Source of the DNA: a virus
Lineage: Duplodnaviria; Caudoviricetes
Virus record (IMG/VR): IMGVR_UViG_3300044852_000015
Location: 64,001-128,000 of that record
Direction: 5' to 3' (one strand)
DNA length: 64,000 bases
The notes beneath the pieces were generated by a model that had not been told where the DNA came from, searched no databases, and worked only from the letters and a program-made list of their open reading frames with translations. Positions 23,962 through 36,482 of this stretch are shown piece by piece. How positions within the stretch are numbered: position 1 is the stretch's first letter; every line of letters starts with the position of its first letter. The position numbers and the translations under genes were made by a program.

Positions 23962-23991
23962 GGGCATAAAAGCAGGGGACCAAAGTCCCCC
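23962..23991 (-). terminator. terminator + TTTTATGCC
   Basis: ggggac/gtcccc stem. Confidence 0.6.
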
Positions 23992-23996
23992 ACTAT

Positions 23997-24257
23997 TTAT
24001 ACGTCGTGATACTCGGGGCGTAAGGCCACCCAAGCACCATTACTCCGTGCACAGTGCAACTGTTGCTGAACCACTAGACACTGGTAGTGAGTGCCAGCGA
24101 ACAGTACACCAGTCGCAGTGTGTGGACGGACCTGCCAACGCTTCCAGAACCAGCGGCCCGTACGTTCAACCACGTACTGGATGTGGTGCTGAGCCGCGAG
24201 GTACCCAGGACTTTCCAGCACTGTTGGGTGATCAGTCGCATCCGGAGGTTTCATCAA
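23997..24257 (-). CDS. hypothetical protein
   Basis: 86 aa ORF overlapping the upstream stop. Confidence 0.6.
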   Translation of the reverse strand: MMKPPDATDHPTVLESPGYLAAQHHIQYVVERTGRWFWKRWQVRPHTATGVLFAGTHYQCLVVQQQLHCARSNGAWVALRPEYHDV

Positions 24258-24517
24258 TAAGCCGCCATGGTTGAGTGAGAGGTATCGCAGATGGTGACCT
24301 TGACGTGCTTCTGACTGATCAACTGGTAGACTTTACAGTCACCAATGGTCGCAATCAGTTCGTGGTTGGTTGTCAGCGCTTGAGGGTTCGCCAAGTTGGC
24401 CGCACGGATCTCGTCACGCTCAGCCCTAGCCAACATCGCCAGACTGACAACCACCATTCCAACCATCAAGGCGTACAGTCCCCACCATGTACGGAAGTGC
24501 TTCTGCACCCAATTCAC
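24254..24517 (-). CDS. membrane-anchored small protein
   Basis: WWGLYALMVGMVVVSLAML TM segment; GTGA coupling. Confidence 0.7.
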   Translation of the reverse strand: MNWVQKHFRTWWGLYALMVGMVVVSLAMLARAERDEIRAANLANPQALTTNHELIATIGDCKVYQLISQKHVKVTICDTSHSTMAAY

Positions 24518-25398
24518 TGACGCACAGCCTTGACATTGGCCGTGATAGCCTTGGTGATAGCGCGCTTGACGTCACGAGCTTCCTTGGGGTCCATGTTGGC
24601 GTGGTAGGCGTTGTTGTACACCACTTGGGCCGCCATGGCGTAGGTGTCGATCGAGAACATTTTGTTGTCGGTAGGGATGCCCGAGTCACCTTTGCTGGTC
24701 AGAGCGAACGGAGTGTAAAGAGGGTTCTCGTTACGATCCTTGGCTTTAGCGAAAGAGGACTCACCGATCTCACCGATCCACAGGCTGTCTTTGTAGTCGT
24801 CAGTGATGTCGCTGCTGATCAGACCCGAACGACCCACGTACAGAATGCCGCCAACTTCCACACGCACGCCGGACTTCATAGTGAAGCCCTGCGATGCCGC
24901 TTCTGCCGCTTCCAGCCAGCTATCGAATTCGACAGTTTTGATGTTGGCGTAATCCGGGTCAACCGCTGCAAAGTTCTTGACGGTCACTTCGGCACCAGAA
25001 CCAGAAACATAACCCACAGCGCGGGTCAGGTTTTCTGCATCGACCATACTGGAGAACTTCTTCACGCCAGTCTTACCGTGAAGCCAGAAGATGACCTCGG
25101 TGTGAGCGTTGGTCACAGTGATGTCGCGAGGCAGACCGAGGCTGGACACAGCATCAGCTTGCATGATCGCCATGACACAATCGCCTTCTTTGAGCAGGTG
25201 TGCGTTTTCCACCGAACCGCCGGTGTTCAAGACTTCAAGCTTGGCGCCAATCTTCTTGGCAATGTCCTTACCGATACCGGTACCCAACGACTCGTAGGCG
25301 CCAGTAGGACCACCAGTACAGAAGGTCAGGTCAGCAGGGGCGGCCAGTGCAACAGTGGATGCCAAAGCGAGGGCCAGGCCAATGAACAACTTTTTCAT
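24514..25398 (-). CDS. TAXI-family TRAP solute-binding protein with signal peptide
   Basis: MKKLFIGLALALASTVALA signal; FCTGGPTGAYESLG, TGGSVENAHLL, MAIMQADA, GSGAEVT motifs. Confidence 0.8.
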   Translation of the reverse strand: MKKLFIGLALALASTVALAAPADLTFCTGGPTGAYESLGTGIGKDIAKKIGAKLEVLNTGGSVENAHLLKEGDCVMAIMQADAVSSLGLPRDITVTNAHTEVIFWLHGKTGVKKFSSMVDAENLTRAVGYVSGSGAEVTVKNFAAVDPDYANIKTVEFDSWLEAAEAASQGFTMKSGVRVEVGGILYVGRSGLISSDITDDYKDSLWIGEIGESSFAKAKDRNENPLYTPFALTSKGDSGIPTDNKMFSIDTYAMAAQVVYNNAYHANMDPKEARDVKRAITKAITANVKAVRQ

Positions 25399-26165
25399 GC
25401 TTTTACTCCAACGGGTTTTTGGTTTGTGTTATTAGAGGATGTTACTTTCAACTCAGCTTTCCACTGTCCGTTCTCGACCCAGAGTAAGATGAGCATCATG
25501 CTGTTGCGGATCAGGGTTGGTGTGTGACCCGTGTTCCAAGAGATACCCTCAAAGAACGTCAGGGTGAAGTTTCCATCGTAGACACGCACCAACAGCGAGT
25601 TGATCCTATCGCGATCAAAGTCACCCTCTTCCAGCTTCAAGTGGAAGTCATCACGAAGCGTTACATCCACAGCGTGATGGGTGTGATCCACCGAAATGAC
25701 TTTGTAGGGTTCCGACACGACATCGAAAGTTACCAAGGTCTGGATGGTAAAGTGTGGCTCTTCACGAGTCCCACTGAAACCAACACTGCGGATACCGAAG
25801 CTCAGATCACTCTCGGGTTCCTTCAGGAGCTGGCGAACGCGATCAGCCATCGGTCCCGTGGGTTTGAAACGACCAGTGAGTCTGTTCTCAGACACACCAC
25901 CCGCCACGATCATACCGCAGACCCGATCCTCGTACACAGCCGCTGCACGGTGGACTACGTCGCTGTACCCTAGATTATCGACGTTGGGTGTACCGAACTC
26001 CACGTAGATCGGAGTACGCTTGAGCAGTTCCTGGAACTTACCCTCAACCTGTTTAGGATCGTAGACCCGCCCGCTGGGGGCTGGTTTACCGAGGGTTGCC
26101 AAAGTGACGTAGTAATAACCGTCAGCATCAGGCGTGAGGTCTTTCACTGGATTATGTCCAATCAT
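25395..26165 (-). CDS. prohead-protease-like (T4 gp21/phiKZ gp175 fold) protein, catalytic residues lost, C-terminal extension
   Basis: start MIGHNP; DGYYYVTL, SGRVY, VEFGTP (cf. GE.GHP), SFGIRS (cf. FSIRS), VTFDVVSEP. Confidence 0.7.
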   Translation of the reverse strand: MIGHNPVKDLTPDADGYYYVTLATLGKPAPSGRVYDPKQVEGKFQELLKRTPIYVEFGTPNVDNLGYSDVVHRAAAVYEDRVCGMIVAGGVSENRLTGRFKPTGPMADRVRQLLKEPESDLSFGIRSVGFSGTREEPHFTIQTLVTFDVVSEPYKVISVDHTHHAVDVTLRDDFHLKLEEGDFDRDRINSLLVRVYDGNFTLTFFEGISWNTGHTPTLIRNSMMLILLWVENGQWKAELKVTSSNNTNQKPVGVKA

Positions 26166-26656
26166 ACTGGAACTCTTGGTGAAATGTCTGAAAGGTCTGA
26201 TAGCACCAAGTCCCACGTTACAATGGCCTTGAGATCAGTACGGTCAGCCGGGTTGGCAAACCCTCGCATCCTGAAAGACAGGGTATCGTCTTCAGTGGCT
26301 AAAATGTCTTGCACTAACGAGGCCATAGGACCCAGCGGTTTGAAGTGGGCGATCAGATGTTCGTCTCTACCACGTATGTCGGCACCCCCACGGATCAGTA
26401 CACCACACACCCGCCGTTCGTCAACAATAGTGCGGCGACTATGCGCTTCCAGTTGAGTCAGCATAGCGACTCGCGGCTGCCCGTATTCAACGTACATCGG
26501 AGCACCACGGTTCAAGCGATCAATGAACGCTTTGCGCACCGTGTCCGGCTGATACGTGAAACCGCCACGCTCGGGTGTTCCTAATTGACCGAGGACTACA
26601 CGGTAGTAACCGTCTTCGTCTACCTTCAGATGATTGACTTTGTTGTCACCAATCAT
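26162..26656 (-). CDS. second prohead-protease-like paralogue, catalytic residues lost
   Basis: start MIGDNK; DGYYRVVL, VEYGQP, SFRMRG, VTWDLV. Confidence 0.7.
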   Translation of the reverse strand: MIGDNKVNHLKVDEDGYYRVVLGQLGTPERGGFTYQPDTVRKAFIDRLNRGAPMYVEYGQPRVAMLTQLEAHSRRTIVDERRVCGVLIRGGADIRGRDEHLIAHFKPLGPMASLVQDILATEDDTLSFRMRGFANPADRTDLKAIVTWDLVLSDLSDISPRVPV

Positions 26657-26820
26657 ACTGGAACTCCTCGCTCGCGACAGGCTTGCTTGTATTCTTCGAT
26701 CATCGTGAAGAGGTTGTTCTTGTGGCGGATGTTCAGGCGGCGACAACGCTTGACCTTGGCCTCCTCTTTCTTAATGGCCGCTTGCATCTTTGCAAGTACT
26801 TCTTCTTGATCGTCTGGCAC
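26653..26820 (-). CDS. small helical early protein, 55 aa (MPDDQEEVLAKMQAAIKKEE...RGVPV), not in the ORF track
   Basis: GTG start with AAGGA RBS, first gene after the early promoter, ATGA-coupled to the next gene. Confidence 0.65.
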   Translation of the reverse strand: MPDDQEEVLAKMQAAIKKEEAKVKRCRRLNIRHKNNLFTMIEEYKQACRERGVPV

Positions 26821-26851
26821 GGTGAAATCCTTATTAAGATCAACTACGTGA

Positions 26852-26878
26852 TACCCTTACATAATTTGTACTTGAGAT
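26852..26878 (-). promoter_or_regulatory. early promoter, variant
   Basis: TCTCAAGTACAAATTATGTAAGGGTA, with A-rich upstream like the other sites. Confidence 0.6.
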
Positions 26879-26897
26879 ATTTTTGAATACAGATCGC

Positions 26898-26927
26898 GGC
26901 ATAAAGCCTAGGACTCACGCCCTAGGC
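26898..26927 (-). terminator. terminator + TTTATGCC ending the tail-fibre operon
   Basis: gcctagg/cctaggc stem. Confidence 0.75.
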
Positions 26928-27609: not shown

Positions 27610-28533
27610 TTAAAAGACGAGTTCCAGAATTGGACGCCATGCGGTATAGATGTACGAGTAGGCCAAGGCTGCCGTCAGAACAGGGTCGGGGTTGACTGAG
27701 CCGTCCGGTCGGAAGATTATGGTATCTCCAGCCGTGGTAGTGACGTCTTTAGTGTACGCTTGACAGTTGGCCACCCACGTAAGGTCATCTAGTTGGATGG
27801 GGTTCACCTGACTGGTGCGCGTGAGGTACAGTGGTGAGATAATCTGATCGTATTCACCACCCACTTGGTTAGCCGGCACAGAACTGGCCGTCAAAGACCC
27901 TACACGGGTACCTGGGAGTCGAACCAAGAAGGTGTCTGCATTCTTCTGAACCGTGACGCCTTGTTGGATCGTTCCGTACGTAGATTTAGCTGCTGCTGAC
28001 CACGTACTCGGGTCATCCTTACCGTACACCAGACCCAATTGATACAGTGTCGCCCACGAAAGGGCGGTAGAGCCGTTCGCAATAGCCCGATCGGGAATGA
28101 ACAGGATCTTCCCGTTGTACACGATTTTAATCCACCAACTGGCAGCGTAGCCACCAGCAGCAGCGTACTGTGCCCCCAGTCCCACGATCTGACACAACTC
28201 GGCTGGACCGAACAAGTCCTCCACGGCTATACGACCAAATGTACCGTAGCTCCAGTCGCCTCGTAGGAGCTTCTGTGGACCCGGACCGGTATACGGCATG
28301 TACGCCAACGCCATATCAGCAGAGAGTGTTTCTTCACCGTTAGCGACCACACCGATGCGGTAGTGGTACGTTTGGTTACGAACGGCTGTGGCGTCTAGGT
28401 AGCTAAAAGTACCAGCAGCCACCTCAGCCAACGGAGTCGGTAAGGCGGTATCGAGAATCACGGTATCGGATCGGTAAACCCGAAACTTATCCACCGTGAT
28501 ATTTCGATCAACCCAATTAATGACGAGTGCCAT
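27610..28533 (-). CDS. virion protein, phiKZ gp131-like family, N-terminal Fn3-like domain
   Basis: GPGPQKLLRGDW..G.FG, W.KIVYNGKILFIP, SW..LY..G.VYG, WRPILEL. Confidence 0.75.
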   Translation of the reverse strand: MALVINWVDRNITVDKFRVYRSDTVILDTALPTPLAEVAAGTFSYLDATAVRNQTYHYRIGVVANGEETLSADMALAYMPYTGPGPQKLLRGDWSYGTFGRIAVEDLFGPAELCQIVGLGAQYAAAGGYAASWWIKIVYNGKILFIPDRAIANGSTALSWATLYQLGLVYGKDDPSTWSAAAKSTYGTIQQGVTVQKNADTFLVRLPGTRVGSLTASSVPANQVGGEYDQIISPLYLTRTSQVNPIQLDDLTWVANCQAYTKDVTTTAGDTIIFRPDGSVNPDPVLTAALAYSYIYTAWRPILELVF

Positions 28534-28542
28534 GATAACTCC

Positions 28543-29469
28543 TTAGGTCAGGATGAGTTCGAATACTGGGAGCCAACCAGGGGCCGGGTTGTAGCCCTGT
28601 TGGACGTTAGTGGCGACCATGGCGTCCATGTATGAGCCGTGACCGTTGGTGATGTTGTAGCCAGATGAGCTGAAGTGCTGCGTGAACGTGGAGTTCATCC
28701 ACGTACCTGGTGCTAGGTCGTTCCACTTGTCTTGTGGTGCCCAAGTATTTAGGGTATTACCCAAACGACCCAGCAGGTCTTCTATTTCGCTCGACTGTTG
28801 ATCGGCCTGACCGAGGGTCACGTAGGAGGACGTGGGTTTGTCACTGGCTTTGAATGACCGAACGATGAATTGGTACGCGCCAATCGAGAAGACTTTGTAC
28901 TGGTTGGCGGGTGCTGTGTAACCGGCAATAAGAACGCCGCTAGGAGCGAACGGGAACGCACCGTTGTCGTTGGTCCCGAAGACAAACCCAGCGTTGTAAA
29001 GTTGGCTAAAGGTGGGGCTTCCGAAGCTGTAGTTCGGGACGTAAAGGATCTTCCCTTTACGGACAAACTTGTGCCACAAGGTGACGTTACCATCGGAACC
29101 GGGACTTGAGTAGGGGTACACGGCGTTCAACAATGACGGTAAGGTCATTTGGACGGCGGGTACGGTCCCGAAGTAACCCAAGTTCCAATCACCACGTAAC
29201 AAGGTTTGTGAACCAGGTCCCGAATCAGGGAAATGTCCCTGAATCAATTGTTGACTCAACAGTTCCTGACCTGAGCGAACGTGACCCACGATGTAGTAGT
29301 AGACCGTGTTACGCACCGCCGCGGTATCGGCGTACGACGTAGCAGAACCTGCAATCGTTGCCAACGGGGTGGGGAGTGCGTTAGGGTCAATCGGGTTCGC
29401 AGAACGGTAAACGTTGATGCTCTCTGCGAGGGCCGCGTTAGCTGACCCCCAAGTGAGTGTAACTGACAT
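28543..29469 (-). CDS. virion protein, gp131-like paralogue
   Basis: same motifs (GPGSQTLLRGDW, WHKFVRKGKILYVP, WLPVFEL). Confidence 0.75.
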   Translation of the reverse strand: MSVTLTWGSANAALAESINVYRSANPIDPNALPTPLATIAGSATSYADTAAVRNTVYYYIVGHVRSGQELLSQQLIQGHFPDSGPGSQTLLRGDWNLGYFGTVPAVQMTLPSLLNAVYPYSSPGSDGNVTLWHKFVRKGKILYVPNYSFGSPTFSQLYNAGFVFGTNDNGAFPFAPSGVLIAGYTAPANQYKVFSIGAYQFIVRSFKASDKPTSSYVTLGQADQQSSEIEDLLGRLGNTLNTWAPQDKWNDLAPGTWMNSTFTQHFSSSGYNITNGHGSYMDAMVATNVQQGYNPAPGWLPVFELILT

Positions 29470-29479
29470 AACCTACTCC

Positions 29480-30415
29480 TTACACCGCAGCCGGTTCAAT
29501 GAGTTCCAACACAGGCCACCATGCAACAGTACCAGTGTAAGCCAAGTAGTTTCGTTGGGCGAGGCTGGCTCGAGTGGCCCCGGCTGACCCTCGCAACAAG
29601 ATGTTTCCACTGGCGGCGTTAGTGACTTTTTCCTGCACTGCCGAATAGGTACCGCCGGTCAGTGTCGCCACTGCAATGTTCGCCCGGTTAGCCATACGCT
29701 GCACAGCAGGCACTAGGTTACAAAGAGGGTAAACCAAATCGTCCCATTCACAAGTGAATGTTTCTGTCGGTTCGGGGACCGTCGCGGCGGCTGGAAATAC
29801 GTTGTAGTCGTCATTGTAACCACGCATCAAACGCACGCGGTATTGGTCAGGTCCGATGGTAACTTTAGCCCCTTGGTTAACGTTAGCACCAGCGTTGTAC
29901 GGTCCGTTATCGTCCGAACCGAACACGATCCCGGCGTTGTACATTTGTTGCCAGGTAAGGCTGCCGGCGACCGCACCTTCTGGGATGAACAACACCTTCC
30001 CGTTACGGGCATACTTATGCCACTTTGGACTAACCGTGGAGACTGTACCTGACGCGAAGTTCACCGCTGTACGCAGGGCGTTGATGTTGATGAACGAGGC
30101 CGATGGAATAGTGCCAAAGTAACCATAGTTGTAGTCACCCACTTGCAGTGCGTTGGGTCCCGCGCCACGACGAGGCACTACGGTGATCGGGTAGTTCGGA
30201 GACACCGTACGGTCTGTTGCCGAGATCGTTTCAAACACGTAGTAGTACGTGGTGCCACGGGTCACGTTGGTATCATTGTAAGTGGTTTCACCGGCTGTCA
30301 AAGAAACAATCGGTGAGGACAGTGCAGCGCGATCCAGTGGAGCCAAGCCACGGTAGATGTTCACCGTAATGGCAGTGGCACCGTTGGGGTTGGTCCATGA
30401 CAATTTATTGTACAT
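29480..30415 (-). CDS. virion protein, gp131-like paralogue
   Basis: GAGPNALQVGDYNYGYFG, WHKYARNGKVLFIP, WWPVLEL. Confidence 0.75.
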   Translation of the reverse strand: MYNKLSWTNPNGATAITVNIYRGLAPLDRAALSSPIVSLTAGETTYNDTNVTRGTTYYYVFETISATDRTVSPNYPITVVPRRGAGPNALQVGDYNYGYFGTIPSASFININALRTAVNFASGTVSTVSPKWHKYARNGKVLFIPEGAVAGSLTWQQMYNAGIVFGSDDNGPYNAGANVNQGAKVTIGPDQYRVRLMRGYNDDYNVFPAAATVPEPTETFTCEWDDLVYPLCNLVPAVQRMANRANIAVATLTGGTYSAVQEKVTNAASGNILLRGSAGATRASLAQRNYLAYTGTVAWWPVLELIEPAAV

Positions 30416-30425
30416 TTAAAGCTCC

Positions 30426-31604
30426 TTACGGGTTATTAGTACCGCTAATACTGAAAGCGTTCAAGGCTGCGAGGCTGTATACAACATTCACAGGGTCAGC
30501 GACCAAGTCAGTCGGTGTCGCGGAGATACTAAAGGCGTTCAACCGTGCAATTTCATAAACCACATTCGCTGGGTCGGAGACTAGGTCAGACGGTGCTGCC
30601 GTGATATTGAACGGGTTCAGTCTCACGTTGGCACTGCCAACCACGTTGACTGGGTTCAACACTCCACCCGGATAGGTGGGGTCGATTATCACAGGTTGCT
30701 TCGTATTAACCGAAGACGTACCAATCAAGTTCACTGGGTTTAGCAGAGGGGGCGGGGTGCCATCAGGGGCTTGTGCCTGCTGTTGGAAAAGAATCGACGG
30801 AGGTTGTGGGGTGGCGGAGATACCCACGGTAACGCCCTGAGGATTCAACAGTGCATCCATCGGCAACAGTTCCAATATGGGTCGCCAAGCAGCATCCGTG
30901 TTGCCCGCATAGGTCTTCACGTTACTCGCACTACCGATGACCGCATAGACCGTGTATGTGGCACCTCGACTGTTAGCCTTGTTAACGTCCGTGGCTTGAG
31001 TCTCTTGGGTCCACGAAGCCATCGTACCACCCACACTGAGTGCACTAGCAGCTTGAGCATCCCACTTATCGGCGATGTTACCGTTACCCGACGTACAGAC
31101 TCGACCCAACAGTTGTTGCCATTCGCTGTTCGACGATTGTGGGTAAGCATCCAGTCCGGCACCCGGATAGGTGGGGTCTGGCCAACCCGTCATCAATCGG
31201 GGAATGAAGCCCCACGTAATCGGACCCTCCACCTTCGTGATCACGTTGTGTTGCCACGCTGCTGGCGTCGCCGGGTAAGCACCGTTCGACTTGGTCCCGT
31301 AAACGAGACCTGCCCCGTAGATGTCGTTCCAACTGATGAAGTTCTTAAGCTGCTGGTTCGGGACGTAAAGGATCTTCCCGTTGTAAGCAAACTTAAACCA
31401 GTACAGCCCTGCGGTGAAGCAGTCAACACCGAAGTTAGTGAAGTTCAACAACCGACCCAGTTCCAACGCACCAAACAATTCAGTGGTTGTTGTGGTTCCG
31501 AAGTACCCTAAAGTAAGGGTGCCGTATTTCAAAGTTTTGGGGCCAGGGCCAGAGGAGCCGTAATAGCTCCCTACTGGGGCTTTCCCAAGCATCATTTCTA
31601 ACAT
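30426..31604 (-). CDS. virion protein, gp131-like paralogue with C-terminal repeats
   Basis: GPGPKTLKYG..GYFG, WFKFAYNGKILYVP, WRPILEL, then five L/V-N/D-P-x-N-V repeats. Confidence 0.75.
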   Translation of the reverse strand: MLEMMLGKAPVGSYYGSSGPGPKTLKYGTLTLGYFGTTTTTELFGALELGRLLNFTNFGVDCFTAGLYWFKFAYNGKILYVPNQQLKNFISWNDIYGAGLVYGTKSNGAYPATPAAWQHNVITKVEGPITWGFIPRLMTGWPDPTYPGAGLDAYPQSSNSEWQQLLGRVCTSGNGNIADKWDAQAASALSVGGTMASWTQETQATDVNKANSRGATYTVYAVIGSASNVKTYAGNTDAAWRPILELLPMDALLNPQGVTVGISATPQPPSILFQQQAQAPDGTPPPLLNPVNLIGTSSVNTKQPVIIDPTYPGGVLNPVNVVGSANVRLNPFNITAAPSDLVSDPANVVYEIARLNAFSISATPTDLVADPVNVVYSLAALNAFSISGTNNP

Positions 31605-31662
31605 AATTCTTCACCCTTGTTAACTATAGCACACCCCACGGTGTGCTATGTATGTCGTTAAT

Positions 31663-32919
31663 TTAGGGGACCAACTCCAGAACTGGCCTCCATCCGTAAC
31701 CTGGATAGGCAGTGTCATCTGGTTCGTACCAAATGCCTGCAAAGCCTGGATAACCACGCAACAGGTGACCACCAGAAGTACTGGCCTCTTTACAGATCTG
31801 CAATTCCCCGTTGGAAGTACCGCCGGTCCAACCCATGTCGGATGGTGTGTTCGTACCCCAAGCGCCATCACTACCTGGGTAGCTAGTAGTCACGCGCAGG
31901 AAGTAGTTGTTGTACTCACCACCGGCAACGCCGGATGGGTCGCTTCCATCACCACCAGTCATGGCCCGAACTTTGTACGTCAGTCCGCCGATCACCACTG
32001 TTTTCGTACCGGTAATCAAACCGAGGACATTAAGCTGGGTCCACGACAATGCTTGACGGATAACCTTCTTCGGCATGTAGAACGTTTTACCGGCGTCTAC
32101 GAACTTCAACCATGGGGTCGTATCGTTAACGAGCGTCCCGGTAGTGAAGCCCACCGCAGCGGCCAAAGCAGAACCACTAATGAAGTCGGCTGCCTGTACC
32201 TCACCTTTAAATGGTGTGGCTGGTATGGTAGATTTCTTGATCAACATTGGCCGCCAACCGTACCAGTTTTGTGGCGTGTTAGCATCAATGTACCAGATGC
32301 CTTTAATTTGGGCACCAGACTCTTGAGAAGCCGAGTCACTACCCCGTGTGAAGTGTGAGGCGGCACTGCCATCGGCACAGATGGTACCTACACCTAGTTC
32401 ATTCGAGCCATCGACAGTTGCAACCCCCAACATTGGTCCTGTGTAGTCGGCCCAATGGAGAGCGTCTACTGGGAAACCAGCTCGGTCAGCCATGGTGTAA
32501 ATGTTGTACATGTAACGGTTCCAGTCGCCGCCGGCGTTAGAAGGACCCACACCACCACTGGTAGCGTTCAATGCACCCGTCATCAACCGGATCACATAGA
32601 CCACGCCACCAATGGTGATTTCTGCTGACCCAGTCAAACCGCGTGCGTTGAGCTGTTCCCAACTCACGTTGTAACGGATGGGTTTCTTGGCGATGTATAA
32701 CTCCAACCCGTTGTCTTCGATGTAGTGCAACCAACCACAATCCCTGTTCATCAGAGTGCCCGCAGTTAGACCCACTGCTGTCGCTAGGGAATCTCCGTAA
32801 ATGAAGTTCACAGAAGGAACCACACCTTTATAGGGAGTCCCAGTAGGAAAGGTTAGCCCTGAGTCATCTGCTGCTGCTGCGGTTTGTTGCAATCTCCCGC
32901 CGTTTAAGATCTCTAACAT
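31663..32919 (-). CDS. virion protein with two tandem gp131-like domains
   Basis: start moved to MLEILNG (GAGGAG RBS); internal duplication TPYKGVV...GWRPML / TPFKGEV...GWRPVLEL. Confidence 0.75.
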   Translation of the reverse strand: MLEILNGGRLQQTAAAADDSGLTFPTGTPYKGVVPSVNFIYGDSLATAVGLTAGTLMNRDCGWLHYIEDNGLELYIAKKPIRYNVSWEQLNARGLTGSAEITIGGVVYVIRLMTGALNATSGGVGPSNAGGDWNRYMYNIYTMADRAGFPVDALHWADYTGPMLGVATVDGSNELGVGTICADGSAASHFTRGSDSASQESGAQIKGIWYIDANTPQNWYGWRPMLIKKSTIPATPFKGEVQAADFISGSALAAAVGFTTGTLVNDTTPWLKFVDAGKTFYMPKKVIRQALSWTQLNVLGLITGTKTVVIGGLTYKVRAMTGGDGSDPSGVAGGEYNNYFLRVTTSYPGSDGAWGTNTPSDMGWTGGTSNGELQICKEASTSGGHLLRGYPGFAGIWYEPDDTAYPGYGWRPVLELVP

Positions 32920-33017
32920 TTTGTCTCCTCCAATTGGGGGACCCCTACTGCAAAAAAAGAGAGCTGGAACACCACCACACAAGAGGGTAGTGACTCCCCT
33001 TGTGTGGTGGTTATTCA

Positions 33018-36000
33018 TCAGACAGAGGCACCAACAGTACCGATCCACTTTGTACCGTCCCACAACAGGGTAACGATGGTAGTAGACGCACCCAATGTAG
33101 GGGTAGCACCACCGCTCCACGTAATGGTTGGCCAAGTGATTGTTGCAGCCCCTTGGATGACCAGAACCACAGTCATGGTCCGTGTTGCACCCGGCACCGT
33201 ACCCGCTTTGAACGAGATCGTGGTAGCCGTGGAGTTAGCCACAGACCACACGTTACCGATAGCCAGGTCGAGGACACCAGCCGCAGCAGCGTTCATCTTC
33301 AGGTCGTAGACGTCCAAGGACACCCAAGCACCGTTCTTACGCAGGTACTGTTTACCGTCTGACGCAGCATCTGCAAACCCAGGGACGATCGTAGCCCAAG
33401 CTGCACCCTTACGAGCGTAGTAGTTGGTATCGTTTGGGGCATCGGCCAGCGAAGCTGGGATGATAGCCCACGCCAAACCTTTACGACCGTAGGTGTTAGC
33501 GTCGTTAGGTGCGTCAGTCAGGTAAGCTGGTGCCGCAGTCCACGCACCGTTACGGCGAGTGTAGTACGTGCCGTCAGATGGAGCATCAGCTAGGCGGGTG
33601 TCGATGATCCAAGCATTACCCTTACGGACATACTGGTTAGCATCGTTAGGAGCTTCAGCGATACCTGCTGGTACAATAGCCCAAGCGCCACCTTTACGCA
33701 TGTAGCCGTTGGCGTCGTTTGGAGCATCTTGTAGAACAGCTACCCACGCCAAACCTTTACGACCGTACGCCGTAGTATCGTTCGGGGCATCTGCAAGTCC
33801 GGCTGGGATTACAACTTCCACCCAAGCCCCGTTCTTACGAATGTATTGCTTGCCATCACTTGGTGCTTCAGCCACAGGGACTGCTACCCAAGCGCCGTTC
33901 TTACGAGTGTAGAAGCCACCGTCAGATGGAGCGTCAGTCAGACCTGCACCAGGGATCACTACTTCCAGCCACGCACCGTTCTTACGGATATATTGCTTAC
34001 CGTCGAGGGGTGCTTCAATGACCGGAAGTTCGAACCAGGTACCGTTTTCACGACCGTACAACTTACTGTCTTTCGGAGCTTCCAGTACGTCGACTTTAAC
34101 CCACGCACCGTCTTTACGAGCGTAGTAGTTACCGTCAACCAGCGCTTCCAGTACAGTGATCTCTACCCACTGATCGTATTCACGGGCGTACAGTTTACCA
34201 TCGTTAGACGGACTGTAAACGTTACCACCGCCCATGTGACCGAGCGATACCCACAGAACGTCAGTAGACTTTCTGAAGTACTCCATGGAGGCAGTGTTCA
34301 GATAGTAGTCGCCACGACGACCATCAATCGGTCCCGGATCACGAGCCAGCGAGACCCACGCAGTACCCACGTCACCTTTGTCACCGGTGAAACCTCGAAG
34401 ACCCTGAATACCTTGGATGCCTTGATCACCTTTGTCACCCTTGTCGCCTTTGATAGGCCCCAAGTTCTCGTAGGCGGCACCCGTCCAGCCCCAGAAGTTC
34501 TGTCCGATCAGGTAACCTTGACCGAGAGTACCACTGCCGGGTAGATCAGCAGAACTAACGAGTTTCCCGACGATCGTGATACCAGGACCCATCGGACCGT
34601 CGTTACCCTGAGGACCGACGATGTTACCGAGGAATACCCAAGCAGTACCGTCGTAGGAGTAGACATCACCAGCACCCACGATGTAACCGTCGCCTTGAAC
34701 CATTCCAGTGACGGCGTTCAAGTCAGCGATCAGAGCGAGATGACCTTTAGGCTTGAAGTTCTGACCGGCAGGGCCCTGAGGACCAATGTCACCGATCAAG
34801 CTTTCCAAGAAGTCATTGATGGTGAGGATGGAAGGGTTAACAAACTGAGCCAGCTCCAGAGCCGACGCACCAGCAGGACCCGTCAGGTCACCGAGGTTAA
34901 TCCAACCCGTACCGTTGTACGACCACAGGTGACCTCTGACCATATAGGTCCAGCCGATTTGTGGGTTAACAACCGCATTCAACAACCCTGGATCAGTCAT
35001 GATACCTTTGGCGATCATGGCATTACCAGTGTCGCCTTTAGGACCACGAGGACCCTCTGGACCTGGAGGACCTTGAACTACCCCGAGGTCAATCCACTCA
35101 GCGCCATCCCAACCCCAGAAGTGACCAGCAATCAAATAACCGTCACCCAAGTTACCCAGTGCTGGTAGCTCACCAACCGTATCGAACTTACCTTTCAGGG
35201 ACAGACCGGCACCGAGGTCACCTTTAGGACCGATCGGACCTTCGTCGCCTTGATCCCCTTTCGGACCCACGTAAGTACCACAGTCAACCCACGCACCGCT
35301 AATCACAACGTAGAGGTTCTGACCAGCGATCCACGCGGAGAAGGCAGGTACAGTAGTCGCATCGGGAAGGTTTCCAACGGCAGCCACCTTACCAGCAATG
35401 ATCAGGCTTTGTCCTGGATCACCCTTAGGACCAACAACTGTATCCCCTTTGTCACCCTTAGGGCCAGCAATAGACAGCAACCACTGCTCGAGTGTTCCGA
35501 GGTATCCAGCCTGCAAAGCCAAGTCATAGTTCGACTTACCTTTGATACTGTCCAACCATTGGGCCAAGGTACCTACGAAGCCTTCTTCTTCAACCGCCAA
35601 CTGGTAGGCAGAGAGACCTTGAACAACACCGAGGTCTTCCCAGTCTACGCCGTTCCACAACCACAAGTGGCCTTGGATGTAGTAGCCGTCGCCACCAGCG
35701 TTACCGTCGGGTGGTAGTTCCGATGGATTTTCGAACTTACCCAGGACAGAGATTGCGTTAGCTGGAAGACCTTTAGGGCCGATCGGACCATCGTCACCTT
35801 TGTCGCCTTTAGGACCAACCAAGCTTGCGAGGTATTGATCCAAAGTACCAGAGAAGCCTGTGGTAATCGCCAGTTGGTAGTTGTTCAAACCCACCAGTGA
35901 GTTCAGCCACTGACCCAAGGTACCTTGGTAGCCACGGGAAACCGCTAGCTCGTAAGCAGACTTACCGCTAGGGCCCACTTGACCAACCTTGGCCCAACCC

Positions 36001-36482
36001 ACGGTATCCCACACGTACATCGCTTCGGCAATGATCCAGCAATCGCCAGAGAGGTTATCCCCGTTAGGCAACTCAGAGATGTCCGCCAGAGAACCCATGA
36101 TCCGCAGGCCGATCCCGTCGTGACCTTTCAGGGACTCAATCCACTCTTCGAACGTGCCGGGGAACCCACCTTGGATTACCGCAACGTCGTACGCTGAGTA
36201 ACCCTGGATACCACGGATCACACCAACGTTACGCCACTCGTCTTCCACCAAGGTGTGAAGGTCAGCCCCGATGATCCAAGAATCACCCGGCTTGGAGTCA
36301 CCAATGTTCGGTAGGTTGTCCGTGCTCTGCAAGGTACCCAAGATGCGAATCGAGGTGCCATCCTTACCCGAGGTGATGACATCAGACAGAAGAGCTTTCT
36401 TACTACCCCCGTCTTGAACAACTTCGATTAACTCAGCACCCGTCAACGGGCCTGCTGGGTCCATATTTGAAATTTTACCCAT
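33018..36482 (-). CDS. long tail/collar fibre protein with collagen-like segments and a foldon-like repeat array
   Basis: GPKGDKGD-type Gly-X-Y runs, SAY.LA...G..GTL..WL.SL.G repeats, 13 (E/D)AP.DG..Y.RK.GAW repeats. Confidence 0.85.
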   Translation of the reverse strand: MGKISNMDPAGPLTGAELIEVVQDGGSKKALLSDVITSGKDGTSIRILGTLQSTDNLPNIGDSKPGDSWIIGADLHTLVEDEWRNVGVIRGIQGYSAYDVAVIQGGFPGTFEEWIESLKGHDGIGLRIMGSLADISELPNGDNLSGDCWIIAEAMYVWDTVGWAKVGQVGPSGKSAYELAVSRGYQGTLGQWLNSLVGLNNYQLAITTGFSGTLDQYLASLVGPKGDKGDDGPIGPKGLPANAISVLGKFENPSELPPDGNAGGDGYYIQGHLWLWNGVDWEDLGVVQGLSAYQLAVEEEGFVGTLAQWLDSIKGKSNYDLALQAGYLGTLEQWLLSIAGPKGDKGDTVVGPKGDPGQSLIIAGKVAAVGNLPDATTVPAFSAWIAGQNLYVVISGAWVDCGTYVGPKGDQGDEGPIGPKGDLGAGLSLKGKFDTVGELPALGNLGDGYLIAGHFWGWDGAEWIDLGVVQGPPGPEGPRGPKGDTGNAMIAKGIMTDPGLLNAVVNPQIGWTYMVRGHLWSYNGTGWINLGDLTGPAGASALELAQFVNPSILTINDFLESLIGDIGPQGPAGQNFKPKGHLALIADLNAVTGMVQGDGYIVGAGDVYSYDGTAWVFLGNIVGPQGNDGPMGPGITIVGKLVSSADLPGSGTLGQGYLIGQNFWGWTGAAYENLGPIKGDKGDKGDQGIQGIQGLRGFTGDKGDVGTAWVSLARDPGPIDGRRGDYYLNTASMEYFRKSTDVLWVSLGHMGGGNVYSPSNDGKLYAREYDQWVEITVLEALVDGNYYARKDGAWVKVDVLEAPKDSKLYGRENGTWFELPVIEAPLDGKQYIRKNGAWLEVVIPGAGLTDAPSDGGFYTRKNGAWVAVPVAEAPSDGKQYIRKNGAWVEVVIPAGLADAPNDTTAYGRKGLAWVAVLQDAPNDANGYMRKGGAWAIVPAGIAEAPNDANQYVRKGNAWIIDTRLADAPSDGTYYTRRNGAWTAAPAYLTDAPNDANTYGRKGLAWAIIPASLADAPNDTNYYARKGAAWATIVPGFADAASDGKQYLRKNGAWVSLDVYDLKMNAAAAGVLDLAIGNVWSVANSTATTISFKAGTVPGATRTMTVVLVIQGAATITWPTITWSGGATPTLGASTTIVTLLWDGTKWIGTVGASV
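33311..34222 (-). repeat. 13 tandem fibritin-foldon-like units (about 21-26 aa each) within the fibre gene
   Basis: e.g. AEAPSDGKQYIRKNGAWVEV vs T4 foldon [21 protein letters not shown]. Confidence 0.85.

Follow-up and report, generated by a model that had tools for sequence, protein, structure and literature searches.

Here we describe two adjacent protease-like genes, PP1 and PP2, in a 64,000-nucleotide stretch of DNA (the window) that comprises bases 64,001-128,000 of a 238-kb IMG/VR virus record, IMGVR_UViG_3300044852_000015. Both genes encode relatives of the S80 prohead protease of giant phages in which the catalytic His and Ser are replaced, and a complete protease gene lies elsewhere in this genome. 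The virus encodes homologues of chimallin, the nuclear-shell protein, and of the beta' subunit of the non-virion RNA polymerase (nvRNAP), in the gene order of Pseudomonas phage Noxifer; it is therefore a nucleus-forming giant phage of the phiKZ type, with transcription by its own polymerases. The chimallin-like gene and the nvRNAP beta' gene that follows it lie beyond the window (G000:C1:155712-158455) and show 31% and 35% identity to Noxifer. A megablast search of the locus against 50,697 GenBank phage records gave no match, and thus no close relative there.

PP1 and PP2 belong to a six-gene unit at 23997-26820 on the minus strand. Its genes and flanking signals, in the direction of transcription, are as follows.

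26906-26927, minus strand: hairpin with a 7-bp stem (GCCTAGG/CCTAGGC), then TTTATGCCG (26897-26905); predicted terminator of the upstream tail-fibre / virion-protein block
26847-26894, minus strand: early-type promoter-like site (30.8 bits), with a variant core, CAAATTAT, at 26861-26868 instead of TATATTAC
26653-26820, minus strand: 55-aa open reading frame (ORF), basic, probably helical, GTG start; first gene, its stop overlapping the PP2 start (ATGA)
26162-26656, minus strand: PP2, 164-aa pseudo-protease, S80 domain only; His to Gln, Ser to Arg, Asp kept
25395-26165, minus strand: PP1, 256-aa pseudo-protease, S80 domain (residues 1-155) and a C-terminal CA module of ~100 aa; His to Thr, Ser to Gly, Asp kept
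24514-25398, minus strand: TAXI-like periplasmic solute-binding protein, 294 aa, with signal peptide; start overlaps the PP1 stop
24254-24517, minus strand: 87-aa ORF, membrane-anchored at its N terminus; overlaps the TAXI stop by 4 nt
23997-24257, minus strand: 86-aa ORF, last of the unit; 4-nt overlap
23975-23991, minus strand: terminator-like hairpin (GGGGGAC...GTCCCC), then TGCTTTTATG; closes the six-gene unit

S80 domains without catalytic His and Ser

Both proteins match the Pfam family Peptidase_S80 (PF20034; cut-off 23.4 bits), PP1 with 50.2 bits (E 2.5e-13) and PP2 with 47.0 bits (E 2.3e-12). They also match phrog_7478, the best PHROG match of each, and phrog_3014, families labelled 'head maturation protease'. 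An AlphaFold2 model of PP1 reaches a predicted local distance difference test (pLDDT) score above 90 over residues 1-155. With this model as query, Foldseek returns T4 gp21 at the top (5JBL; probability 1.0, E 1e-5, template-modelling score 0.61-0.65 on the target), followed by herpesvirus proteases. PP1 is thus predicted to have the gp21/herpesvirus-protease fold, as a first-pass annotation made from the sequence had proposed for both ORFs; modelling covered PP1, to which PP2 is 37% identical. The link to gp21 is one of structure only, since a PDB sequence search with the family profile gave no gp21 match. Identity to gp21 and herpesvirus assemblin is 12-14%, with no counterpart of gp21 H85 or S140.

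The genome contains exactly three S80-like frames, the two dead ones and an active one. The active protease, P0003 (254 aa; 255.6 bits to S80), lies at 200,894-201,655 of the genome (200.9-201.7 kb), 110 kb from PP1 and PP2; the first-pass annotation had only anticipated an active paralogue. It retains the motifs GEYGHPK, CFSVRS and VTWDY, and its triad H75/S152/D177 corresponds to H77/S153/D178 of SPN3US gp245 (PMC5694885). P0003 is at most 49% identical to known proteases, the best being those of Xanthomonas phages RTH11 and Xoo-sp14.

Pairwise and multiple alignments, in P0003 numbering, place Thr in PP1 (EFGTPN) and Gln in PP2 (EYGQPR) at the position of His75. The position of Ser152 is occupied by Gly in PP1 (SFGIRS) and by Arg in PP2 (SFRMRG), while Asp177 is retained in both. 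The replacement of both catalytic residues, already read from the motifs, is therefore upheld by alignment with the phage's own enzyme, and every scaffold motif listed at the time is present. Most residues that flank the active site persist as well (E-x-G-x-P, R73, P-x-G-P, F-x-x-R and T-x-D). In contrast, the C-terminal motif of the active clade, G183...E196...W254, is absent; it belongs to a region with an inferred part in prohead targeting and auto-cleavage. With these substitutions, PP1 and PP2 cannot use a Ser/His mechanism.

Relative to phiKZ gp175 and SPN3US gp245 (MEROPS S80, PF20034), PP1 and PP2 have in common the fold, the Pfam match, most flanking residues and the triad Asp. They differ in the absence of the catalytic His and Ser, of H102 and N148 and of the conserved C-terminal region, in the deletion of a beta-hairpin insertion of ~15 residues, and in belonging to a different transcription unit.

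Clade membership and C-terminal modules

A profile built from PP1, PP2 and two close relatives was run against 1.84 billion cluster representatives and found 577 proteins at E <=1e-3. Residue statistics and clade counts cover the best 150 of these 577 relatives, of which 106 carry H/S/D and 44 do not; the active set (n=106) is defined by H, S and D at the three triad positions, hence the invariance of His and Ser within it. On a maximum-likelihood tree of the domain, a single branch parts the 106 active from the 44 dead sequences (Shimodaira-Hasegawa-like approximate likelihood ratio test, SH-aLRT, 96). The tree is unrooted, and to call the dead set monophyletic assumes a root among the active enzymes. 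Clade-specific hidden Markov models (HMMs), built without the window's proteins, score PP1 at 143.6 bits (dead) versus 77.2 bits (active) and PP2 at 140.5 versus 75.2 bits, about 65 bits higher with the dead model. The same models put the SPAsTU gp117-like protein, Stratton gp135 and gp136, and PhiPA3 gp143 in the dead clade. Tree and profile scores place PP1 and PP2 in an old pseudo-protease clade derived from the S80 protease, the same as that of SPN3US gp117 and monophyletic on the tree. Three further candidates for dead paralogues (L005, L010 and L011) were rejected; they are canonical active proteases.

The substitutions in this clade are not evenly spread. The His column of the dead set is nearly random, its commonest residue reaching 16%, and His itself survives in a few members. 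At the Ser column, in contrast, 77% of the members have Gly and most others Ala, and Asp persists at the third triad position in 95%. E56, G58, P60, R73, G104, F123 and R126 are each kept in at least 90%. The dead set has lost H102 and N148 of the active clade together with its whole conserved C-terminal region (G183, A187, K189, E196, E222 and the terminal W), and most of its members are domain-only proteins of ~150 aa. Among these 44 members, there is no conserved alternative Ser, His or Cys of the clade's own. This residue pattern suggests, as the simplest history, one old Ser-to-Gly inactivation followed by free drift at His, rather than independent decay in this phage. The first-pass annotation had stressed that each catalytic residue was replaced by a different one in the two copies, which would suggest independent decay; across the clade only the His position is free. 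Nor do the copies appear to be independently decayed duplicates of the phage's own protease, given an old lineage that is monophyletic on the tree, and the tree likewise rejects a recent duplication of the active protease within this genome. PP1 groups with P0006 (the orthologue from phage L004) and P0008, and PP2 with P0004 and P0005. As the two thus fall in different sub-clades and are only 37% identical, a recent tandem duplication was rejected too.

The C-terminal parts of these proteins point to a history of exchange. Among relatives, the domain is followed by one of two unrelated modules, CA (PP1, P0006) or CB (P0004, P0005, P0007 and the pseudo-protease at L009:1030-1776). P0024 consists of CB alone, and P0009 combines CA and CB with the protease-like domain cleanly deleted. 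PP1 itself ends in a 12-residue remnant of the CB terminus. A faint BLAST similarity had raised the idea that the PP1 C-terminal module is a diverged prohead-targeting tail; this was rejected, because the CA and CB profiles align to 105 canonical protease C-termini with an hhalign probability below 1%. Neither module resembles anything found in Pfam or ESM Atlas searches, and PP1 residues 157-256 gave noise-level matches only in the ESM Atlas (0.80). The nearest relatives of PP2, P0004 and P0005, are 60-64% identical to it and 250-254 aa long, with a CB module that PP2 lacks. The only stretch that the PP1 and PP2 genes share is an 18-nt junction (GAGTTCCAGTATGATTGG), found at each gene start. 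At the corresponding position, phages L004 and L009 each carry just one pseudo-protease; PP2 is therefore probably a domain-only fragment of a different sub-lineage, recombined in at the 18-nt junction repeat.

PP1 and PP2 are not new in kind but new members of a published clade with some new anatomy. Ali et al. (2017; PMC5694885) described paralogues of the prohead protease of giant phages that have diverged and are presumably inactive; they named SPN3US gp117 ('cryptic protease'), Stratton gp135, Kwan gp144, 201phi2-1 gp206 and PhiPA3 gp143 and reported two homologues in Erwinia phages Machina, Caitlin and ChrisDB. Like PP1 and PP2, the gp117 group comprises diverged S80 paralogues encoded apart from the real protease, with incomplete catalytic residues, without the protease C-terminal region, and with two copies in some phages. 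The copies are in tandem in Stratton (gp135 and gp136), and in PhiPA3 a faint further copy, gp142, adjoins gp143. Besides the clade HMM scores, phrog_7478 joins the group to PP1 and PP2. The published HHpred alignment of gp117 matches Ser and Asp without His (PMC5694885); here, the SPAsTU gp117-like protein reads FAIRG, with Ala at the Ser position. What sets our pair apart is the extra ~100-aa C-terminal module of PP1, replaced by a different one in PP1 relatives, and an operon that includes a conserved 55-aa ORF and a TAXI-like gene.

Salmonella phage SPAsTU (L006; 1522-2007 and 4445-4777) has a second dead S80 paralogue 2 kb upstream of its gp117 homologue, past an HslU-domain gene. The same authors noted that gp118 fused to gp117 would make a protein of gp245 length (PMC5694885); the SPAsTU gp118 homologue has a typical signal peptide and matches neither S80 profile.

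Comparison with L004 indicates that PP1 is maintained. The ratio of nonsynonymous to synonymous substitution rates (dN/dS) between PP1 and its L004 orthologue is 0.20 (0.19 for the N-terminal domain and 0.17 for the C-terminal part), with dS near saturation; it is 0.16 for the 55-aa ORF and 0.08 for the TAXI-like gene. The 69% identity of PP1 to this orthologue is ordinary among neighbour genes, which range from 42% to 96%. Together these values indicate a gene under purifying selection, with no sign of unusually fast evolution.

Operon structure, transcription signals and neighbours

Successive genes of the unit overlap by 4 nt, and the six form a translationally coupled accessory operon, in which the 55-aa ORF and the TAXI-like gene accompany the pseudo-proteases as first proposed. 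PP2 starts at an ATG at 26656 and PP1 at an ATG at 26165, each in an ATGA overlap with the stop before it. In L004 and L009 the orthologues start with MIG..., immediately after the small-ORF stop. These starts shorten the frames from the 194 and 273 aa initially listed to 164 aa (PP2) and 256 aa (PP1). The order of 55-aa ORF, pseudo-protease and TAXI-like gene is conserved in three phages (this phage, L004 and L009). The small ORF is kept in L004 (82% amino-acid identity) and in L009 (54 aa), each time immediately before the pseudo-protease gene. Pfam and PHROG searches gave no significant match for it, and it shows no similarity to the small ORF upstream of the SPAsTU gp117-like gene. At the other end of the unit, the 86-aa ORF has an L004 orthologue with 87% identity, whereas no L004 orthologue or PHROG match was found for the 87-aa ORF.

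The TAXI-like protein matches Pfam NMT1_3 (33 bits; cut-off 27) and phrog_6856 (E 1e-40) and is 95% identical in L004, where neighbour genes show 42-88%. Homologues occur in 298 phage records, mostly of Vibrio phages but also of Pseudomonas phages Noxifer and Lana. A general pairing of TAXI and pseudo-protease genes was considered and rejected, as no S80-like frame lies within 4 kb of the Noxifer homologue. Given this distribution, the TAXI-like gene probably shares the transcript as an independent accessory gene. When the TAXI protein served as a query against bacterial genomes, in order to infer the host, no relative was found.

The operon directly follows a tail-fibre / virion-protein block (27610-36482), with the hairpin terminator between them. 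Hairpin plus TTTATGCCG is found at 22 places in the genome, where 1.8 would be expected, and the word nearly always stands right after a G+C-rich hairpin. In L004 the stem differs in sequence yet still pairs (GCCTGGGAG/CTCCCAGGC), that is, it co-varies. The hairpin is predicted to insulate the operon from the tail-fibre / virion-protein genes. The placement of PP1 and PP2 outside the morphogenesis block, as given in the first-pass annotation, accordingly holds in terms of transcription but not of position. The terminator tail is a fixed word, TTTATGCC(G/…), unusually sequence-specific and often bidirectional, with an A-run on the other side; examples in the window are at 26897-26927, 1240, 5824, 44026 and 59865.

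Upstream of the 55-aa ORF lies the variant early-type promoter-like site that had been noted at the outset. The genome contains 16 exact TATATTA[CT] sites, all on the minus strand and in a common context of ~40 nt. A matrix built from these 16 finds 23 sites at or above 28 bits, again all on the minus strand, and the next best in the genome scores 8.6; the operon site, with 30.8 bits, ranks 21 of 23. Its upstream element, ATCTCAAGTA, fits the consensus, and its core deviates. L004 shares about 60 identical nt at the promoter, and L009, a more distant phage, has the same variant core, which argues that the variant is not decay. The 23-copy motif presumably represents the early promoter set of the virion RNA polymerase. 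A conserved AT-rich motif marks the early (virion RNA polymerase) promoters in every RNA polymerase-encoding jumbo phage profiled so far (review, PMC7598289), and early expression of the operon is thus a reasonable expectation. The ~40-nt motif (ATTnAAA..aTtTCAaatcTATATTACctAaGTGaA; 23 copies) has window sites at 1626, 5793, 10295, 26894, 46914 and 61084, on the minus strand.

The neighbouring block contains four tandem paralogues of 307-392 aa (27610-31604, minus strand) that match the virion structural protein families phrog_1062 / phrog_3589. At 42-68% identity to their L004 orthologues, they are the fastest-evolving genes of the neighbourhood. A kelch-repeat tail-fibre-like gene (31663-33135, minus strand) is 75% identical to its counterpart at L004:5584-7716 and differs in position; the L004 copy immediately precedes the 55-aa ORF, and the copy in the window lies beyond the fibre paralogue family.

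Possible functions of the pseudo-proteases

We favour a reading in which PP1 and PP2 are non-catalytic binders of the S80 protease or of its recognition sites, and give it a probability of roughly 35-40%. The best-conserved positions of the dead clade surround the former active site, and a small residue is strongly preferred at the old Ser. Both features are as expected for a retained peptide-binding cleft, which is what leads us to this preference. A cytoplasmic, non-virion role is likely as well, considering that the C-terminal region, inferred to target the active enzyme to the prohead (PMC5694885), is absent and that the virion mass-spectrometry tables of SPN3US have no gp117 row. PP1 and PP2 would then act in the cytoplasm, outside proheads and without cleaving, by binding either peptides with the S80 recognition motif or the active protease itself. 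Such binding could act as a buffer on protease activity, both before head assembly and outside it. Within the pair, PP2 may be a partner of PP1 or partly redundant.

Dead protease paralogues are known to regulate active relatives, as do c-FLIP with caspase-8 and the iRhoms. There, too, a dead paralogue is kept by selection beside an active enzyme; these proteins are not homologous to PP1 and PP2, and the likeness is an analogy only, with c-FLIP and caspase-8 the model for how binding by PP1 and PP2 might work.

Several observations weigh against the binder reading. No binding partner of PP1 or PP2 emerged from the analysis, and the conserved residues that flank the cleft may be purely structural. 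The Arg of PP2 at the nucleophile position, found in 2 of the 44 clade members, could occlude the cleft. Phages L004 and L009 manage with one copy. Neighbour genes differ among the phages that carry the clade and therefore offer no consistent hint at function. The case for early timing comes from the promoter motif, whose core is off-consensus and includes TATG, the core of phiKZ late promoters; a different timing class is thus possible.

Alternatively, the fold could have acquired a new function apart from proteolysis, as a scaffold re-used with the 55-aa protein or with the CA and CB modules and with a target unrelated to the head protease. This is possible but doubtful. The clade is very old and diverged, linkage to the 55-aa ORF is strict in the three phages, and the modules are found not only joined to the domain but also on their own (P0024) or joined to each other in its absence (P0009), all of which would suit such a scaffold. 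However, a retained cleft would more readily account for conservation that peaks around the former active site, and most clade members are domain-only proteins of ~150 aa.

Two proposals link the clade to immunity. It is improbable, in our estimate, that the gp117 clade is a widespread giant-phage countermeasure to protease-sensing defences that works before the real protease is made, whether it caps host bait loops or keeps S80 protease in the cytoplasm inactive until the enzyme has entered proheads. The narrower idea of an immune decoy, which came with the first-pass annotation, is one version of the binder model. Pseudo-proteases made early would occupy protease-sensitive loops of CD-NTases, the enzymes of the cyclic-oligonucleotide-based antiphage signalling system (CBASS), or of similar guards, and so prevent later cleavage and abortive infection. 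Its premise that a prohead protease can trigger CBASS is sound: a CD-NTase is activated when gp21 cleaves a surface loop, this requires the T4 gp21 active site, and gp21 H85A/S140A is inactive (PMC12991175). Moreover, the genes lie in a variable accessory region behind an early-type promoter, and patchy occurrence among giant phages, variable copy number and shuffled C-terminal modules, all seen in the clade, are common traits of counter-defence genes. Yet nothing shows that S80 proteases trigger CBASS, no result here ties PP1 or PP2 to it, and the bacterial-genome search with the TAXI protein gave no host. The typical 69% identity of PP1 to its L004 orthologue and the dN/dS of 0.2 give no sign of an arms race, and stoichiometric shielding of host proteins is a costly strategy. 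We regard the decoy as quite unlikely.

Equally hard to sustain is a role as non-catalytic components of the prohead core or scaffold, packaged with the active protease. Homology to a prohead-core enzyme, an operon that adjoins the tail-fibre block and relatives annotated 'virion structural protein' (a label probably transferred from the protease) would agree with it. But PP1 and PP2 lack the C-terminal region conserved in the active enzymes, the PP1 C-terminal module aligns to that region with an hhalign probability below 1%, and the unit has its own terminator-insulated early-type promoter. In addition, SPN3US virion tables list no gp117, and gene presence varies among related phages. That the genes are relics without present function has little to recommend it: Ali et al. 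(2017; PMC5694885) presented gp117 as a remnant, truncated and presumably inactive, and PP2 is truncated with an unusual Arg at the Ser position, but PP1 has a dN/dS of 0.2, the frames are intact and translationally coupled, and the clade is deep and widespread, with at least 10 positions kept in at least 90% of its members.

Dead paralogues of an essential virion enzyme are selected across many giant phages, and their role has been unassigned since 2017. To this picture our analysis adds evidence for a single old clade with a Ser-to-Gly hallmark, a lost C-terminal region and shuffled C-terminal modules, and, in this lineage, a conserved operon behind an early-type promoter. The database label 'head maturation protease' is wrong for genes of the dead clade. 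The 2026 report on CBASS and the prohead protease (PMC12991175) makes the function of pseudo-proteases concretely testable. If a pseudo-protease does counter CBASS, it would represent a new class of counter-defence; if not, regulation of the phage's own protease stays the default hypothesis.

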